NCBI GenBank assembly: GCA_947626895.1
Contig: CANQTY010000001.1
Location: forward strand, 2,477 to 66,476
DNA: 64,000 bases
DNA from: an uncultured Bacilli bacterium
GTDB taxonomy: Bacteria; Bacillota_I; Bacilli_A; RFN20; CAG-449
Direction: 5' to 3'
Shown here: positions 3,554 to 55,566 of the stretch, piece by piece
Position numbering within the stretch: position 1 is the stretch's first letter
How the letters are laid out: each line of letters starts with the position of its first letter
Notes under the pieces: generated by a model
Told to the model about the DNA's origin: nothing
The model's input: the letters and a program-made list of their open reading frames with translations, nothing else
The model's database searches: none
Translations under genes and position numbers: made by a program

Positions 3554-3655
3554 TTCCTTTGCATTATAAGTTCAATTTAATTTCATAAATTTTCATTGAC
3601 AATAATTCGAGTTCGAATTATATTAAAATACGAAATCGAAATATAAAGAGGCTTT

Positions 3656-12401: not shown

Positions 12402-13799
12402 ATGCCTGAATTACCAGAAGTTGAAACCGTAAGAAGAATTTTAAATACTTGTGTACAAAATAAAAGAATACAGGATGTTTTAATTTACGATGATCATATG
12501 GCAAAAAATTCTAAATATCCTTTAAACGTTTTAAAAGGTGAAAAAATACATGTCGTTGACCGCAAGGGAAAATATTTAATTTTTCGTTTAGATCACTATC
12601 TTTTGATTTCACATCTACGGATGGAAGGAAAATATTATTATCACGAAAAAAGAGTTGAAAATGCACCCCATACCCGCATTATCTTCTGTTTTGATGATGG
12701 TACATATCTATATTATGATGACTCTAGACGATTTGGTACGATGGATGTTTATTTAATTGATGAAGAAAATAATATTCCTTCTATATCCTCTTTAGGAAAA
12801 GAACCATTTCAGTTAACTAAAGAAGAACTATATAACGATTTTAAGAGTCATCATTTAGAAATCAAATCAATGTTATTATGTCAAAATATCATCGCAGGAA
12901 TAGGAAATATTTATGCTGATGAAATTCTCTTTGAAAGTAAAATATCCCCTTTTAAAATGTGTGATACTTTAACTTTAAATGAAGTAGATGTTATTCTAGA
13001 AAATGCCAAAAAAATCTTATTAAAAGCCATTGATTTAGGTGGTTCAACCATTAGAAGTTATCATCCTTCTGAAGGAATCGATGGACTATTCCAAGAAGAA
13101 TTAAAAGCTTATGGAAAAGAAAATAAACCATGCATTCATTGTAATACTTTAATGAGATGCCACATGTTACACGGAAGAAGTGTTACTTATTGTCCGACGT
13201 GCCAAAATGTAGCAAAAGTTGTTGCTATTTATGGAAAAATAGCATCAGGTAAATCAACCGTCTTAAATTATTTATCATCACTAGGCTATAAAACCTTTTC
13301 CGCGGATAAGGAAGTGAATGACTTATATAAAAAAGATTTTCATTTAAAAGCATTTTGTATCCATCTTTTTGGTGAAGCTTGTCTAACACGATTTGGCACA
13401 ATTAACAAAAACGTTATCAAAAAACTTATTGTTAATGATGAAAATAAAAAAATTGAATTAGAAAATTATATTCATCCATTAGTGAAAAAAAGACTGATTT
13501 CCTTTATTAAGAATAATATCTATGAAAAAGTGATATTTATTGAAATACCTTTATTATTCGAAGCTAAATGGGATGATTTAGCGGATGAAATCCTAGGAAT
13601 TGATATTCCCTTAGATTTACAAATCACCCATTTAAAAAAACGTAAATCTAAAAATATTTCAAGGGATTTAGCCCTTAATTCATCTTTAAAATTTAATAAG
13701 AATTTAGCAAAATGTAATGATATTATCGTAAATGATGGTTCATTAGATGAATTATATCAAAAAGTCGATACATATCTTAATATGATTCTACGTAAGTAG
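12402..13799 (+). CDS. mutM: fusion protein: formamidopyrimidine-DNA glycosylase (Fpg/MutM) N-terminal + dephospho-CoA kinase (CoaE) C-terminal
   Basis: MPELPEVETVRR Fpg N-terminus with catalytic Pro2/Glu3; H2TH; zinc finger CIHC...CPTCQ at about aa 245-270; four residues later a CoaE P-loop VVAIYGKIASGKSTV runs to aa 465 with no stop between. Confidence 0.8.
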   Translation: MPELPEVETVRRILNTCVQNKRIQDVLIYDDHMAKNSKYPLNVLKGEKIHVVDRKGKYLIFRLDHYLLISHLRMEGKYYYHEKRVENAPHTRIIFCFDDGTYLYYDDSRRFGTMDVYLIDEENNIPSISSLGKEPFQLTKEELYNDFKSHHLEIKSMLLCQNIIAGIGNIYADEILFESKISPFKMCDTLTLNEVDVILENAKKILLKAIDLGGSTIRSYHPSEGIDGLFQEELKAYGKENKPCIHCNTLMRCHMLHGRSVTYCPTCQNVAKVVAIYGKIASGKSTVLNYLSSLGYKTFSADKEVNDLYKKDFHLKAFCIHLFGEACLTRFGTINKNVIKKLIVNDENKKIELENYIHPLVKKRLISFIKNNIYEKVIFIEIPLLFEAKWDDLADEILGIDIPLDLQITHLKKRKSKNISRDLALNSSLKFNKNLAKCNDIIVNDGSLDELYQKVDTYLNMILRK

Positions 13800-14094
13800 G
13801 TAAAAAGATAAAAAACGTATAGGAAATTTCTTTTGTTGAAAGAAAAACAAATCGTCTAATATCTTTTTTTAAAGTACATATCAAATGATTTTCTCCTTCT
13901 TTTAAATCATAAGAGATTTTTTCTTTTAATAATTCCTGCTTTAAAAAAGATGAAAATTCATTACTCTTATCATAGGATTCACGAATTTCATCCTCAAAAC
14001 GATAAAAAGACTTCAAAGTCATATCTTCATTTTGCACATCATGAAGAAATAAAAAATACGTTATAAATACGATGAAAAGAAGAATCCGTTTCAT
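13777..14094 (-). CDS. small secreted/membrane-anchored hypothetical protein
   Basis: probable start at internal Met (MKRILLFIVFITYFLF signal peptide), giving a 4-nt coupling overlap with the upstream gene; the ORF-track start at 14139 is less likely. Confidence 0.4.
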   Translation of the reverse strand: MKRILLFIVFITYFLFLHDVQNEDMTLKSFYRFEDEIRESYDKSNEFSSFLKQELLKEKISYDLKEGENHLICTLKKDIRRFVFLSTKEISYTFFIFLPTYVESY

Positions 14095-15110
14095 AAAAAA
14101 TACACCCCATATAGATAAAATAAGAAGAAAGCGACACAAAGTATAAAAGGGTAAAATGAAATAGATTCTTCCTTTCTAAGGATTGGTTGATATTCATAAG
14201 TTATTCTTGTGTCTTTTAAAGCACTTGAAATCATTAATATTTTTTCTTTGTCTTCTTCATCATAAGATGAAAATGCTTCTTGAAGAGCTTTTCCTGATCC
14301 TTCAATAAAAAGTAACTTTCTTTCTAACATTGTTTCACCAAAGTTTTTTAGTAATTTACACGCATTTTCAAATGCTTCATAAGGTTTTAAAACCTGTCCG
14401 TAGCAGGTGAAATATAAAAAGAATTGATTCATTTTCTTATCTTCTTTTTTCTTTGTTAGATATAAAATAACAAGAAAACCACTAGTTAAAGCAAAACTGA
14501 AATATAGAACGCCAATAAACGATTGAAATATTTCTAAAACATAAGAATTTTGTGCCATTAGTAATAAAAAGGCATATTGCACAATATAAATTAGATGGAT
14601 GAATTGCAAATTTTTTTCATACGTTTCTTCACTTTCTATCGGAAATAAATAATCCACAACTTTTTTTAATGCATTAAAACTTTTCGCATTTTGTAAAGCA
14701 AATAATAAGATTTCAAATGAATCAAATGGATAAAGCGTTCTTAATCTTGCCATTACTTCTTCAAGAGTGTCAGCTTTTGCCTTTGGTTCTGCAGCAATAA
14801 AGGCATCACGTAATGTTTCACTTTTCCAATAAAAAAGCATTTGATGAGCTAATAATTTTAATCTAATTTGTTTTTGAATATCTTTAATCTTAGGAAGACA
14901 ATAAAAATAAAATAATAAGCTTTCCATCAATAGATATAAAATTGTTAAAATCAAAGAAATAATCATTGATTTTGAAAGAGTCTCTATAAAAAAGAAAAGT
15001 AAAATTCCCTTTATAATTATCTCTATAATGTATGTAAAGTACCCCTCAGGTGGATTCTTTCGTTTAGGTTTCTTCTGGTGTAAGAAACGGAAATGAAAAC
15101 TTCTTGGCAT
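14091..15110 (-). CDS. polytopic integral membrane protein, unknown function
   Basis: several hydrophobic spans (about 7 predicted TM segments); start ambiguous, possibly an internal Met; no family recognised. Confidence 0.4.
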   Translation of the reverse strand: MPRSFHFRFLHQKKPKRKNPPEGYFTYIIEIIIKGILLFFFIETLSKSMIISLILTILYLLMESLLFYFYCLPKIKDIQKQIRLKLLAHQMLFYWKSETLRDAFIAAEPKAKADTLEEVMARLRTLYPFDSFEILLFALQNAKSFNALKKVVDYLFPIESEETYEKNLQFIHLIYIVQYAFLLLMAQNSYVLEIFQSFIGVLYFSFALTSGFLVILYLTKKKEDKKMNQFFLYFTCYGQVLKPYEAFENACKLLKNFGETMLERKLLFIEGSGKALQEAFSSYDEEDKEKILMISSALKDTRITYEYQPILRKEESISFYPFILCVAFFLFYLYGVYFL

Positions 15111-15388
15111 AATTCCTCCTTTATTTGTTCATAATGAATATTCACTTTTAATGAATCCAAAGCATATAGATTTTTGATTTCATGTAAGTAGTATGTAAGA
15201 TTATTTTCAAAGACATCTTGAACAAAATTGTAGTCCTCTTCTTTAAAGACGCTTTGATTTAATGAATATTCGAAAACTTCCGAAATTTCCTTTTTTAAAA
15301 ACTCTTTATCTATATATGAAGTTGTTACTTCAGAAAATGCCGAACAAAATAGCATAAAACAAATGCTAAATAGATAATATTTTTTCAT
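15023..15388 (-). CDS. small secreted hypothetical protein
   Basis: signal peptide MKKYYLFSICFMLFCSAFS; 121 aa. Confidence 0.45.
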   Translation of the reverse strand: MKKYYLFSICFMLFCSAFSEVTTSYIDKEFLKKEISEVFEYSLNQSVFKEEDYNFVQDVFENNLTYYLHEIKNLYALDSLKVNIHYEQIKEELCQEVFISVSYTRRNLNERIHLRGTLHTL

Positions 15389-16205
15389 ATGTTTCTATTT
15401 CCTTTTCACTGATTTCAATTTGATAAGAAGAGGAAAAATCTTCATTGATTTTAATGGTCTTAGGAAAATGAAATATATTTTTTCCTATTCCAATATTCAC
15501 TTCATAATTAAGTTCACCTTGGAAATATTTTCTTGGAAGAAATATATCCTTTTCATCTCCTTTTCCATCATAAATTAGTTCCCCATTTAATGAATAAGAA
15601 TATCCCGTTTCTAAAGAAAAAGTATAAATGTTCTCATTTTGATAACTATCTAAATGAAATAAGTATCCTTCTTCATAGGGTAAATGAGGAAAAATAAGTT
15701 TTGACGTATAAATTTTTAAATCACAATAGACTATATCTTTCCCTTGATAAAGAATTGTTCCAAATAAATCACGTGGGAACTTAAGTAAAGATAAATATTC
15801 CTCGATATTTGGAAAAATAAATTCAACATGATCTAAGCAACGATTCACACAATAACAATTACTCATTAAAGAAGAAACATAATATCCTAAATCGTATTCA
15901 TCCTCAATATCATAAAGATGAGTTCTATTCCTTGTATTGGTAATCTTTACTTTCGTATAAGCTAGCTCTGATTTAATGGTTATATAAAAATCATTTGTTA
16001 AATCCTCTAAAGGAATCTTTAAAATAGAAGAATCTGTATCTAATGATTCTTGGTTTAATTCATAACCAATTATTTTACCAACATTAGATGTTACATTTAG
16101 TAACAAAGAGGAGTCTTTGATTTCACTAGCTTCAACAATATAATCAGAAGATGGAATAGATAATAAGGACAATATGCATAAGCTTACCATTATTCCATTA
16201 AACAT
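15366..16205 (-). CDS. secreted hypothetical protein
   Basis: N-terminal signal peptide MVSLCILSLLSIPSS; Tyr/Asn/Glu-rich; no recognisable family. Confidence 0.45.
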   Translation of the reverse strand: MFNGIMVSLCILSLLSIPSSDYIVEASEIKDSSLLLNVTSNVGKIIGYELNQESLDTDSSILKIPLEDLTNDFYITIKSELAYTKVKITNTRNRTHLYDIEDEYDLGYYVSSLMSNCYCVNRCLDHVEFIFPNIEEYLSLLKFPRDLFGTILYQGKDIVYCDLKIYTSKLIFPHLPYEEGYLFHLDSYQNENIYTFSLETGYSYSLNGELIYDGKGDEKDIFLPRKYFQGELNYEVNIGIGKNIFHFPKTIKINEDFSSSYQIEISEKEIETYEKILSI

Positions 16206-16549
16206 AGAAATTCCTCGATGGCTTTTTTCCTAAGACGATAGAATGTCGAACGCGTGTAATAACGCATCCACCAAAACTTTTCAACCTGGAAGAAAAATTC
16301 TTTCCATAGTAACATTGCTTTTCTTCTTTCTAAACATGATAGACTAAAATTAACTCTAGCTAAATATTTAGCGTTTTCATTGTTACTTTGCTGCGATTTC
16401 AGATATAAATGCCTGTTTTCATACTTAGGATCAAAAAGCAATGGTTGCTCTCCATTATTACAATAAGGATCATTCATACAAATAGCTAAGCACCTTTTGT
16501 AGCGGACCACATAAGCCCTAATTTTATTTTCTCTATCTTTATTCGTCAT
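16190..16549 (-). CDS. small sigma-70 region-4-like HTH regulator (ArpU/RinA/DUF1492-like phage-type activator)
   Basis: C-terminal TRSTFYRLRKKAIEEF matches the sigma-70 region 4.2 recognition helix; real start at internal Met MTNKDRENK (ATG 16547-16549) with GGAGGT RBS 8 nt upstream; the 5' part of the 150-aa ORF is translated promoter DNA. Confidence 0.55.
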   Translation of the reverse strand: MTNKDRENKIRAYVVRYKRCLAICMNDPYCNNGEQPLLFDPKYENRHLYLKSQQSNNENAKYLARVNFSLSCLERRKAMLLWKEFFFQVEKFWWMRYYTRSTFYRLRKKAIEEFLCLME

Positions 16550-16769
16550 AGACAAATACCTCCATGAAATCAAAAAAACATATTTTTTGTAAAAGGTAAA
16601 GAGTTTTTTAAAAAAGCGTAAAAATGTTACTTTTTGTCTCATTTTCGTCCCATTTTGGTGTCATTTTGTTGCACCAGAATCTCATTTTTCATTTTTTTGC
16701 TCTTGTCATCAAATTTCTTGATTTTGTATAAGATAAAAATTATACTTACTTTAATCTTAAAAGGAGTCT

Positions 16770-19128: not shown

Positions 19129-20139
19129 CTAATTAAATAAATCTTCTTCATCATTAGAATAATAATTAGAGATGATATGATCAAAATATTCATAGATGGA
19201 TTTTAGTAAGAGATTATTTACATAATATTCCTTATGAAGGGGAATCCTTTTGTAAAATAAATAGTTGATGCGATTATTGACGCAGCGCTTTACACCTTTA
19301 TTTTTAACTAAAATATTAAATAAATATAAAGTGCTAGTGATTTGTCTTATCGCCGAATTTGCTAGCTTATGTTGTCTTGTTTCTTTAGAAACACCACATT
19401 CAATTAAAAAAGTATTAATTAAAAAATTTGGTGTCCTTTTCACATCTTTCTTATGAAGAATAGATAAGATACAAACACTATGTGCTAAAGCATTTCTAAG
19501 CTTATGGACATCCATCAAGATTGGAATATATTTATGATCTTCTAGATGATAATAAGTGGTAAGAAAATCAAAAAAGTTAATCAGTTCTCCAAAAGATAGA
19601 ATCTTTAAAAATTTACCCAAAGGAAAATTTGTGATTTTTCTTCCACTATCTAGGTTATATTTCAAAAATATATCTTCATAATATACATCATTTTTCTTAG
19701 ACATGATGGAATTATGAATTCTTTTAGGAAACCTAGAATCGTAATAATCTTGATCTAAGAATAAATTTACGATGTTTAATCCATCTTCACCCGGAATTTT
19801 TGACACGAGATTTTTTATTCTTAATTTAAGATTCTCTTCGATTTCGTTTGTCATTTTTTGAAGCAATTCCCTAACTAAAGAATCGACAAGGGATAAATCC
19901 TTTAAATAGGCAAAATCTACATCCATGAATTTTCCTTTAAATTCTCCATTTGGATAAAGTACAAAATTGTGACGATAAGAAACAACCGTATCATAATCTT
20001 TACTCGTCTTCAAAAAATATTCTGCTTCTTGCTCATTACAAAGCTCAAATTTAATATTTTTGCTTTTTAAATAATTAATCACTTCAAAAATATTCAATTC
20101 AGACTCTATAGTTGCAGTAGCAATATTTCCATTCATCAT
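19129..20139 (-). CDS. Abi_2-family (AbiD/AbiF-like) abortive infection protein
   Basis: 336 aa; LSFGELINFF and VHKLRNALAHSVCIL match the Abi_2 family hallmarks (sFG.l motif; R-N-x-x-A-H motif). Confidence 0.6.
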   Translation of the reverse strand: MMNGNIATATIESELNIFEVINYLKSKNIKFELCNEQEAEYFLKTSKDYDTVVSYRHNFVLYPNGEFKGKFMDVDFAYLKDLSLVDSLVRELLQKMTNEIEENLKLRIKNLVSKIPGEDGLNIVNLFLDQDYYDSRFPKRIHNSIMSKKNDVYYEDIFLKYNLDSGRKITNFPLGKFLKILSFGELINFFDFLTTYYHLEDHKYIPILMDVHKLRNALAHSVCILSILHKKDVKRTPNFLINTFLIECGVSKETRQHKLANSAIRQITSTLYLFNILVKNKGVKRCVNNRINYLFYKRIPLHKEYYVNNLLLKSIYEYFDHIISNYYSNDEEDLFN

Positions 20140-40655: not shown

Positions 40656-41009
40656 ATGTCTTACAAAAATAGTGAAATTGGTAAGAAAATTAAAAAATTA
40701 AGAGAAGATTCTCATCTTACTCAACAGCAATTAGCAGAATACTTAAATGTAGATCAAAGTCTCGTTTCTAAATTTGAAAAAAGCGAGCGTACTATTAGTT
40801 CCGATATATTAACCGAAATATCAATTTTATTTTGCTGTTCATTACATGATTTATTATCAAATGAAGATATTATGCCGAAATTTAATATTGCATTTAGACA
40901 AAGTGAAATTTCGCTTGAAGATTTAAAAGAACTTTCAATTATTCATAAAATTGCGCTAAATCAAGTTAAAATTGATGAATTAAGCAAAGGAGTTAAAAAC
41001 CATGATTGA
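40656..41009 (+). CDS. XRE-family HTH transcriptional regulator
   Basis: LTQQQLAEYLNVDQSLVSKFEKSERTIS is a canonical Cro/C1-type HTH. Confidence 0.85.
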   Translation: MSYKNSEIGKKIKKLREDSHLTQQQLAEYLNVDQSLVSKFEKSERTISSDILTEISILFCCSLHDLLSNEDIMPKFNIAFRQSEISLEDLKELSIIHKIALNQVKIDELSKGVKNHD

Positions 41010-41745
41010 TAAGTTAAAATTAAGTATTTCGACTTTACAAACACGTCATCAATTTGGAGAAGATGACATATCTCCAATTGATATTTTTAGTTTAGTTAAA
41101 GCGATTAAAACATTAACATTAATCATATTTCCCTTTAAGAAAAGCATTAGTGGTTTATGTATTCATAATCCATCATCTTCAATTATTGCAATCAATTCTA
41201 GAATGTCCCTAGGAAGACAGAGATTTACATTAGCTCATGAATTATATCATCTTCTTTATGATCAAGATAAAGAGATAGTTTGTCGTAAGGATTTCTCTTA
41301 TGATAACGAAAACGAACATAGAGCGGATTTGTTTGCCTCTTATTTATTAATGCCTCCATTAGCCTTGCAAACAATGATTCAAAAATATAAAAAAACATCT
41401 AAATATCGCCTTACTTTACATGATATTATTGAAATTGAGCAAACCTATGGAATATCTCATCAAGCTCTTTTAACACGTTTAAAAGAGGAAAAAGAAATAA
41501 ATAGCGATCAATTTGATGCAATGCAAAATGGAGTCATATCTCTAGCAAATCGTATGGGATTTGATTGTTCATTGTATAAGCCATCGGAAGATAAAATACA
41601 AGTATATGGTTATTATATTTCTCAAGTGGATTTTCTATATCAAAATGATATTATCTCCAAGGGAAAATATGAAGAACTATTATTAGATGCATTTCGCGAC
41701 GATATAGTGTATGGTAATGACGAAGGAGGGGAATTTCTTGATTAA
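41002..41745 (+). CDS. ImmA/IrrE-family metallopeptidase (COG2856)
   Basis: HEXXH LAHELYHLL; size and gene order (after XRE) typical of ImmA/IrrE; 8-nt overlap with the XRE gene. Confidence 0.75.
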   Translation: MIDKLKLSISTLQTRHQFGEDDISPIDIFSLVKAIKTLTLIIFPFKKSISGLCIHNPSSSIIAINSRMSLGRQRFTLAHELYHLLYDQDKEIVCRKDFSYDNENEHRADLFASYLLMPPLALQTMIQKYKKTSKYRLTLHDIIEIEQTYGISHQALLTRLKEEKEINSDQFDAMQNGVISLANRMGFDCSLYKPSEDKIQVYGYYISQVDFLYQNDIISKGKYEELLLDAFRDDIVYGNDEGGEFLD

Positions 41746-53899: not shown

Positions 53900-54012
53900 T
53901 TGCCACTTTTTTATGGATTATCTTTATTTAATATGCCACTTTTTTAGGAATTATACAACATAAAAATGCCATTATTTTAAAAATTTAAAGTCTTAAAATG
54001 CCACTTTTTTTA
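53900..54012. repeat. four direct repeats of ATGCCACTTTTTT at 32-33-nt period in a divergent promoter region
   Basis: GCCAC/GCCAT at 53902, 53935, 53968 and 54000, each followed by a T-run. Confidence 0.75.
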
Positions 54013-54288
54013 ATTTTATCATTTTTTTAACCATATTAGATAATAAAAACGAATAACCAAAAATAGGTTTTTTTATCGTAACTAATCATAGATTTATAGC
54101 TTCATTTTTTAAAATGAGATTCTGGTGCAACATAATGAGACCTATTTGGGATGATTTTGGCACAAAAACCCCTAAATATAGGTAATTTTAAAAAAATGTT
54201 TTTTCTTTAAATATAATATGCTATGGTCAAAAGCAATAAATGATAGATGTATATTTATGGGTAAAAATCTATCGAAAGGAGAAAAAAT

Positions 54289-55566
54289 ATGAACCACTTT
54301 TATGATGAATTTAAAAAACCTACATGTTCAGAACTACTAGACTTTCTTGAAGAAGAATTAAAGGACATTGATTCTACAAAAAAATTGATGATAAGTTTTG
54401 AAATCAGCGCTGTTGCAACTAGAATCGGTGAAAAAGTCAAAGACACATTCACGATTGATTCAAGTGTTTTTGAAATCACACCACTTTTAATCGATTTAGT
54501 AAGACCTCCCTTCGGGGAAATTGGAGAAAAAACTCTGCATAATATTCTCGCGGGTCATGATGATTGTCTTCATATCGTAAACGATGTAAAAGCTCTTAAT
54601 GTTGCGCAAAGCTTTAAGCAGAATCTTACTTCCGCGAGATTGATGATTGACCTTACTGAACAAGGAGTAGAAAAAAAGAAAATGGAAAAAGTTTTAGATG
54701 CCGTCTTAAAAAATCGTGAAATTTATTTTGATGAATACAAAGAAGATATTGCTCTAAATGAGGAATTTAAGTATATTGTCAAGGACTTTAAAAATTTAAA
54801 TGGCGAAGATTATTACAATCATAATCCAAAATATATTGAAGGCTATATTCTTTCTATATCCACGAAAGTGATTGATCTATTTATTGACTATATCAATTTA
54901 ATGAAGAAAAACAAAATGTTTAAATTTGAAATAGAAAAATCCGAATTTTATAGCTATTTTAAAACAAGTATTGATTCTTTTTTAGAAATGGATATTCCAT
55001 CTCAAGCAACAGCATTATCTAATGAGCTAATAAGAATCTTTATAGATGAAATCAAAAAAGATTCGAATCATTTCATACTTAGTGAAAATAGTATATTCTT
55101 TTATTTATTTAATGCATTTCAAAAGATTAAAAATGATGTATTAAACAAAGATTTATCTTATAAAATTAATAAAGGGGCTCAAGAATTAATTATAAAGCAG
55201 ATTTTTGCCAATTATTATCAAAATCCCTTCTGCATGAATGAGGTATTCTTTAAACATTTTTATGGCTCCATCATGGACATAAAAGGTTTACCAAAAAATA
55301 TCTATCAAGATATGAATATGTTTAAAGAGGTCCTAGATATTGAAGATGAAGATCAACTTGCAAAAATAAAAGAAAAAATGGAAGATTTTCTCAAAGAATG
55401 CAGAAAGAATATAACCCAAAAAGATTTACCTAGTTCTTTAAGAGATAGTTATCGCACTATCTATAAGCAATATTTAAAAAGCATTGCATTTTATATTGCA
55501 TGTATGACCGATGAGATGGCTTATAAAGAAAGTGTACTTTTTGAAAAAAATGATGAAAAAGATTAG
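54289..55566 (+). CDS. hypothetical cytoplasmic protein (425 aa), no recognisable family
   Basis: good RBS (AAAGGAGAAAAAATATG); first about 400 nt noticeably more GC-rich than surroundings; upstream region shares a conserved element with the 16190-16549 regulator gene. Confidence 0.5.
   Translation: MNHFYDEFKKPTCSELLDFLEEELKDIDSTKKLMISFEISAVATRIGEKVKDTFTIDSSVFEITPLLIDLVRPPFGEIGEKTLHNILAGHDDCLHIVNDVKALNVAQSFKQNLTSARLMIDLTEQGVEKKKMEKVLDAVLKNREIYFDEYKEDIALNEEFKYIVKDFKNLNGEDYYNHNPKYIEGYILSISTKVIDLFIDYINLMKKNKMFKFEIEKSEFYSYFKTSIDSFLEMDIPSQATALSNELIRIFIDEIKKDSNHFILSENSIFFYLFNAFQKIKNDVLNKDLSYKINKGAQELIIKQIFANYYQNPFCMNEVFFKHFYGSIMDIKGLPKNIYQDMNMFKEVLDIEDEDQLAKIKEKMEDFLKECRKNITQKDLPSSLRDSYRTIYKQYLKSIAFYIACMTDEMAYKESVLFEKNDEKD

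Follow-up and report, generated by a model that had tools for sequence, protein, structure and literature searches.

Small basic proteins of the Ltr superfamily (RinA, ArpU, the sigma70_r4-like LtrA, LtrB, and LtrC) activate the late genes of phages (PMC3753634). They bind two to four direct repeats within a block of about 59 nucleotides (nt) upstream of the terS promoter, and these repeats are both necessary and sufficient for the activation of a promoter that is otherwise silent or weak (PMC3753634). DNA specificity is conferred by the proteins' C-terminal part, and LtrA is annotated as sigma70 region 4-like (PMC3753634). This repeat block is the closest experimental precedent for the element analyzed here, a 59-nt array of hexamers that occurs twice in a 64,000-nt stretch of contig CANQTY010000001.1 from an uncultured Bacilli bacterium (this whole stretch is referred to as the window): once upstream of the gene for a basic protein of 119 amino acids (aa) in the MG284/MPN403 family and once, 38 kb away, upstream of an orphan gene for a 425-aa protein.

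We lean, by a modest measure, toward reading the element as a tandem operator, or upstream activating site, that is putatively bound by the 119-aa protein and through which this protein would regulate its own gene. Autoregulation together with a second target, as proposed in the initial annotation of this DNA, is a reasonable reading of the sequence.

Like the Ltr activators, the candidate ligand is a basic protein (119 aa, pI 9.5) whose C-terminal domain is predicted to have a sigma region 4-like fold, and the 59-nt block, here holding five direct repeats, lies upstream of a promoter with a weak -35 element and is conserved in orthologues. Unlike the Ltr systems, this one is chromosomal and sits in conserved synteny (from fpg-coaE to a PedC-like lipoprotein/DUF3267 pair) without phage genes. 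Its repeats precede the regulator's own gene, whereas those of the Ltr systems lie downstream of the regulator gene, before terS, and the genes it is predicted to control encode envelope proteins and a dGTPase-like protein. The present system resembles the Ltr systems but is not a member of them: the 119-aa protein scores 13 bits against the ArpU model TIGR01637, below the cutoff of 43.1, and full-length matches to this model, all of them subthreshold, occur in 3 of 15 family members. No Ltr-type match for the regulator was found in PHROG or Pfam, and no relatives of it were found among the viruses of IMG/VR, the phages of INPHARED/GenBank, or the plasmids of PLSDB.

Five phased hexamers at two predicted promoters

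The 22-nt exact inverted match reported in the initial annotation is borne out: TGTTGCACCAGAATCTCATTTT, at positions 16667-16688, reappears at 54111-54132 as its exact reverse complement, and its 17-mer core has only these two sites in the window, with up to 3 mismatches permitted. Copy 1 is oriented toward the open reading frame (ORF) of the 119-aa protein (16190-16549, minus strand) and copy 2 toward that of the 425-aa protein (54289-55566, plus strand), so that each copy lies upstream of its gene and points at it, as first described. Read toward the downstream gene, 16630-16688 of the minus strand and 54111-54169 of the plus strand align without gaps and are identical at 47 of 59 positions; the extent of roughly 60 nt given earlier stands, and the accompanying figure of about 75% identity is replaced by a measured 80%. 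This value is far above that of random pairs of 59-mers from the window (mean identity, 29%; maximum, 56%; n = 20,000 pairs), indicating that the similarity of the two copies is real.

Rather than two blocks, the element consists of five TGNNAY hexamers whose start-to-start distances are 11, 10, 11, and 11 nt. The units of copy 1 (16630-16688, minus strand) are TGAGAT (16684-16679), TGCAAC (16673-16668), TGACAC (16663-16658), TGGGAC (16652-16647), and TGAGAC (16641-16636), and those of copy 2 (54111-54169, plus strand) are TGAGAT, TGCAAC, TGAGAC, TGGGAT, and TGGCAC, starting at 54115, 54126, 54136, 54147, and 54158. Most hexamers are preceded by an A4 or T4 tract (AAAA before most of those in copy 1), and because the A/T-rich spacers give a period of 10 to 11 bp, all hexamers fall on one face of the helix. 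The 21 bases that span the A-tract and units 1 and 2 (-4 to +16, counting from the T of unit 1) are identical in both copies and include the non-A/T spacer TCTGG. The phased CATTTTG tracts recorded earlier at a spacing of about 11 nt are indeed present, as three 15-nt direct repeats with 11-nt spacing, and are this same five-unit array viewed on the opposite strand.

Phased chains of at least three TGNNAY units occur in the window, searched on both strands, only as these two arrays, with five units each, in keeping with the original description of the element at one further gene. A five-unit chain was reached in 0 of 100 dinucleotide-preserving shuffles, in which the mean count of chains with at least four units was 0.02. 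The window has no conspicuous third array: the next-best matrix scores, 17.2 and 15.1, fall within the distribution for shuffles (maximum, 15.7 ± 2.9). One weak array-like run (TGAAAA, TGAAAT, TTGAAC, and, farther on, ATGGGAT) at 3554-3655 of the minus strand ends at an extended -10 element, TGTATAAT, and sits upstream of a gene for a 782-aa DinG-type helicase (candidate at about 3589); it is probably a chance occurrence, because its score of 15.1 lies inside the shuffle range.

The similarity between the two copies is modular. Anchored on the first hexamer, identity is 36% in the upstream flank, 80% across the 59-nt element, and 39% over the 18 nt that follow; 10 of 12 positions are then identical in the block around TTAAAA and 8 of 12 in the region around a -10-like hexamer, beyond which identity is 26%. 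Discrete blocks are kept at exactly equal spacing, and the intervening DNA has drifted to background. The geometry in both copies is array, 24 nt, TTAAAA, 18 nt, and the -10-like hexamer. For the regulator operon, the predicted sigma-A-type core promoter (16582-16611, minus strand), called by consensus match only, pairs a -35 TTAAAA (16611-16606) with a -10 AAAAAT (16587-16582), and that of the 425-aa gene (54188-54217, plus strand) pairs TTAAAA (54188-54193) with TATAAT (54212-54217) and matches 10 of 12 consensus positions. With transcription of the regulator operon predicted to start near 16575, the hexamer centers would lie at about -106 to -63. In both copies, the core promoter is followed by a short leader and then by a GGAG-type ribosome-binding site, which for the 119-aa gene is GGAGG at 16563-16559 (minus strand).

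This arrangement bears on the suggestion, made in the initial annotation, that TGCAACA and GGGAYGA resemble the -35 and -10 elements of an alternative-sigma promoter; on such a model, the small sigma-like protein would be the factor or half of a split one. The two blocks are 15 nt apart in both copies, TGCAAC resembles the -35 hexamers of extracytoplasmic function (ECF) sigma factors, and the C-terminal domain of the protein is predicted to resemble sigma region 4. However, the blocks belong to a set of five equivalent phased hexamers, in which they are units 2 and 4. The supposed -35 element is the unit least conserved among orthologues, the 119-aa protein is devoid of sigma region 2, and in both copies a conventional weak -35 element (TTAAAA) with its -10 element (TATAAT or AAAAAT) is predicted 24 nt downstream of the array. 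An alternative-sigma promoter is thus very improbable.

The phasing of the A/T tracts raises another explanation, namely that curved DNA, acting like an UP element, stimulates the promoter without a dedicated protein. Such tracts precede most hexamers at an 11-nt period, the array lies directly upstream of a weak -35 element, and intrinsic curvature had already been remarked upon in the initial annotation. Yet conservation, whether from copy to copy or across orthologues, falls on the G/C-containing hexamer (with TGRRAY enriched sixfold in the orthologues, as detailed below), the A/T spacers swap freely between A tracts and T tracts, and the 21-base stretch that is identical in the two copies includes TCTGG. 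Although curvature may well contribute alongside protein binding, it is improbable that it accounts for the array without a protein.

Two inverted copies 37.4 kb apart with a 22-nt perfect core might also be taken for recombination sites around a 37-kb invertible segment or for the remnant of a mobile element. Against this, the flanks are unrelated (36% identity), all strain contigs carry the same junctions as the window, no recombinase is encoded nearby, and orthologues keep the array at one locus. In a collection of 185,579 species genomes, of which the source genome is apparently not one, the 17-mer GAGATTCTGGTGCAACA has 101 single matches in unrelated taxa, about the frequency expected by chance (some 70 matches by our own estimate), and 0 of these 101 genomes carry the extended motif. 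Because the 17-mer is near chance frequency and never occurs with the extended motif, the element is not a generic repeat, the concern raised when it was first described. A dispersed repeat or miniature inverted-repeat transposable element was rejected on the two window copies and on flank identity at background, and the inversion or recombination-site idea was rejected on the constant junctions in all contigs and the unrelated flanks. We regard a mobile remnant or recombination sites as scarcely credible.

Conservation of the array beside the regulator gene

The region upstream of the regulator gene was compared with its counterparts in eight other species at 40 to 68% protein identity (L010, L006, L011, L013, L015, L017, L125, and L126), to which three more distant family members (L129, L130, and L132) were added, giving 11 upstream regions in all. 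In the closer orthologues, the upstream regions align without gaps and contain WWWTGRRAY units at about -135, -114, -103, and -92 from the ATG, followed by a conserved TTTT-AAAA block near -65. The most conserved unit is unit 1 (ATGRGAW), and the least conserved is unit 2 (TGCAAC). Consensus-type promoter matches recur downstream of the array at conserved offsets, an example being TTGAAA-N16-AATAAT in L006.

A matrix trained on the ten window units alone was used to score four-unit phased arrays on both strands of whole loci (5.6 to 10.4 kb). In five of the eight species, the best match of the locus lies 115 to 154 nt upstream of the regulator ATG and on the coding strand. Between -160 and -76 in the 11 orthologues, TGRRAY is seen 15 times against 2.4 expected, a sixfold enrichment (P = 3.5e-8), and TRRGAY is seen 14 times against 1.2 expected (P = 3.6e-11). 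The array accompanies the regulator gene even where the upstream neighbor is a different, codirectional gene (L125 and L126). Loss from orthologous intergenic regions had been named at the outset as the outcome that would speak against the element; the array is instead kept there at an equal distance from the start codon, and this conservation supports a cis-regulatory DNA element in the promoter region of the sigma region 4-like regulator gene. Within the species itself, five contigs of the regulator locus and five of the 425-aa locus are identical over array and promoter and, for that reason, are uninformative on conservation. With each species' own array as the query, no second array above background was found within 5 kb on either side of the orthologous regulators.

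Perfect short inverted repeats occur within the array region of two orthologues, TTCGAGCAAA...TTTGCTCGAA in L011 (4868-4917) and GAGACT...AGTCTC in L126 (2835-2858); none of this kind were seen in the window copies.

The orthologues also bear on the possibility that the element is an RNA: a structured leader, as mentioned in the initial annotation, or a small RNA whose transcription would cross the array. The plus strand of copy 1 does fold better than its shuffles (z = -4.6), but this strand is antisense to the gene, and the two copies share no fold (their sense strands have z scores of -2.2 and -0.1). Covariation, the check suggested for this alternative, yielded 0 predicted pairs with RNAalifold on 7 orthologues, and there was no Rfam match at the gathering threshold in the whole window or at an E value of ≤1 in either region. 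An RNA leader was rejected on the absence of RNAalifold pairs and the disagreeing single-sequence folds of the copies, and an RNA of either kind is extremely improbable.

Candidate ligands of the array

The 119-aa protein (16190-16549, minus strand; pI 9.53) matches the NCBIfam model for the MG284/MPN403 domain, NF045770, over residues 62 to 115 with 66.4 bits (cutoff, 37.3). All 15 close homologues exceed the same cutoff over the C-terminal 54 residues, the best with an E value of 6e-20, and no match for the protein was found in Pfam. The ORF can also be read as a 150-aa version that extends into the array, but the 119-aa start is favored: gene callers chose it on every related contig, and the placement of the GGAGG site fits it. 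In the structural model, the C-terminal domain resembles sigma region 4, in line with what the initial annotation had supposed, and the N-terminal half comprises a long helix followed by a loop and a short helix. Sigma region 2 is lacking, and the protein is therefore no complete sigma factor. A profile search returned 320 cluster representatives at an E value of ≤0.001, nearly all of which, among the 150 listed, are about 90 to 190 aa long. The PDB sequence search returned no structure for the family, and no function or DNA target was found in the literature searched for MG284 and MPN403, which are conserved hypothetical proteins of Mycoplasma. The array upstream of the regulator gene is new information on this family and not a known property of it.

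Sigma region 4 reads -35 hexamers of the TGAAAC/GGAAC type, and TGAGAC, TGGGAC, TGAAAC, and TGCAAC resemble ECF -35 elements. Three points make the 119-aa protein the obvious candidate ligand: the array co-occurs with its gene across lineages, the fold predicted for its DNA-binding domain is one that reads -35 hexamers, and the hexamers have this resemblance to ECF -35 elements. The modeled C-terminal fold is like that of ECF sigma region 4 on -35 DNA (e.g., SigW domain 4, PDB 6jhe). Unlike an ECF sigma factor, the protein has no region 2, and its putative site comprises five tandem hexamers, not a single -35 element paired with a -10 element.

On this basis, several copies of the 119-aa protein would bind side by side on the five phased T(G/A)RRAY hexamers, which lie on one helix face in an array at about -110 to -57. 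Downstream of the array, the sigma-A-type core promoter has a weak -35 element (TTAAAA, 18 nt, -10), and the bound regulator would recruit or stabilize RNA polymerase there. The outcome would be positive autoregulation of the regulator's own five-gene envelope-protein operon, and the same promoter module would drive the orphan dGTPase-like gene 38 kb away in this species. What we infer is that the 119-aa protein binds the array, that its effect is to activate and not to repress, and where transcription begins.

The same tandem operator could instead be read by a different factor, the MG284-family gene being merely one of its targets. OmpR/PhoB-type response regulators typically bind direct hexamer repeats with a 10- to 11-bp period, and in the Pho box and in the WalR site TGTWAH-N5-TGTWAH such repeats lie upstream of, or overlap, a weak -35 element. 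The repeat geometry of the array is like that of OmpR/PhoB-type boxes, its 11-bp phased direct hexamers sharing the architecture of the Pho, WalR, and CiaR boxes, and no computed result ties the array physically to the 119-aa protein. Unlike in those systems, however, the candidate binder here is no winged-helix response regulator. A response regulator is encoded by none of the 20 further window ORFs scanned against Pfam, and no two-component system was seen in the annotated parts of the window. The array follows the regulator gene across species despite the changed upstream neighbor in L125 and L126, there are two copies only in 64 kb, and the hexamers resemble the -35 elements read by region 4 domains, which is the fold predicted for the neighboring protein. 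We judge it unlikely that a different factor is in control.

Several observations weigh against binding and autoregulation by the 119-aa protein. The window-trained matrix performed weakly in L006, where the array ranked fourth, missed the arrays of L013 and L125 (which have TARGAY hexamers), and detected none in the three distant members L129, L130, and L132 (3 of 3). Unit 2 and the 22-nt perfect block occur in this species alone. The hexamer consensus varies from TGRGAY to TARGAY, yet the recognition helix hardly changes, and for this reason no protein-DNA covariation backs the pairing; conservation of the array beside the regulator gene would equally fit control by another conserved factor. 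The core promoter calls are consensus matches in DNA of 28% G+C, where such matches are common. Finally, autocorrelation for a 10- to 11-nt period is modest or weak in most orthologues and was not used as evidence, because the signal is clear in copy 1 only.

Putative target genes and implications for the MG284/MPN403 family

The regulator gene is followed by four codirectional genes (13777-16205, minus strand) for proteins of 279, about 110, about 291, and about 105 aa. For all four, sequence features (signal peptides or transmembrane segments) predict secreted or membrane proteins, and none has a match in Pfam, NCBIfam, PHROGs, or PDB. Together with the regulator gene, these genes (for about 280, 110, 290 to 340, and 105 aa) form a predicted five-gene operon that is conserved in all orthologous loci. 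Sequence divergence of the four genes is very rapid: queried for homologues, the 339-aa ORF matched nothing but itself. The order and sizes of the genes are nevertheless kept down to 40% regulator identity.

At most loci, the operon is flanked on one side by a fused fpg-coaE gene and on the other by a divergent pair encoding a thioredoxin/PedC-like lipoprotein and a DUF3267 protein. In the window, the fusion is a single 465-aa ORF (12402-13799, plus strand) that joins formamidopyrimidine-DNA glycosylase (Fapy_DNA_glyco plus H2TH) to dephospho-coenzyme A kinase (CoaE), and the same fusion is present in every fetched orthologous locus that extends to that side of the operon. An AbiD/Abi_2 abortive-infection-like gene (19129-20139, minus strand) lies 2.4 kb from the regulator locus, and an HTH_3 and IrrE/M78-peptidase pair (ImmR/ImmA-like) is located at 40656-41745 (plus strand).

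The second carrier of the array, the orphan 425-aa gene (54289-55566, plus strand), encodes a protein with remote similarity to dGTP triphosphohydrolases (TIGR01353, E = 3e-9; PADLOC dGTPase, E = 1.6e-8). A search of 5.8 billion proteins yielded a single homologue, a variant from the same species with 97% identity. Residues 36 to 90, to which the PADLOC dGTPase model aligns, contain LLIDLVRPPFGEIGE, whereas the canonical dGTPase motif is LLHDIGHPPFGH, a comparison by which the His/Asp metal ligands are substituted. The metal ligands thus appear to be lost, and the protein may, from its sequence, be a catalytically dead dNTPase homologue. An 11-codon upstream ORF, ATGGGTAAAAATCTATCGAAAGGAGAAAAAATATGA (54257-54292, plus strand), includes the ribosome-binding site of the 425-aa gene, and its stop codon overlaps the start codon of this gene (ATATGA).

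The divergent neighbor on the minus strand is a strong PDC-S01 (AAA_14/DUF4143) candidate defense gene. Adjoining its ribosome-binding site and start on the upstream side (53901-54010, plus strand) are three exact copies of TGCCACTTTTTT (53901, 53934, and 53999), the only ones in the window, and a variant (53967), with spacings of 33, 33, and 32 nt; these may form another phased repeat with a regulatory role, distinct from the array and recurring every three helical turns. Array copy 2 is identical in the strain that has the 97%-identical protein. Three independent metagenome contigs with this variant (L120 to L122) keep array and promoter identical and lose all similarity to the window upstream of about 53971, which suggests that the PDC-S01 gene varies between strains and that the 425-aa gene and its promoter are kept.

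By analogy with the sigma region 4-like Ltr/ArpU activators, we tentatively raise a broader proposal, to which we give somewhat less than even weight: MG284/MPN403 proteins might be a chromosomal, autoregulated branch of this activator type, oligomerizing on five phased -35-like T(G/A)RRAY hexamers to switch on an envelope-protein operon. The promoter module could then be placed before newly acquired genes, here the degenerate dGTPase-like gene beside the candidate defense gene.

An array of transcription factor sites upstream of a promoter is an ordinary kind of element, and the general kind of system is well known; the array itself is an undescribed motif on an uncharacterized protein family. 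MG284/MPN403, named after genes of the near-minimal Mycoplasma genomes, is a conserved unknown of the Mollicutes and related low-G+C bacteria. The orphan gene, which was probably acquired horizontally, would have been wired into a host circuit by way of the whole array/-35/-10 module at its exact spacing. If the pairing of array and regulator is true, the repeat-block design of phage late-gene activators would also be used by a chromosomal operon, and the MG284/MPN403 family would gain its first testable function, in the form of an autoregulatory circuit with its DNA target and a small regulon.
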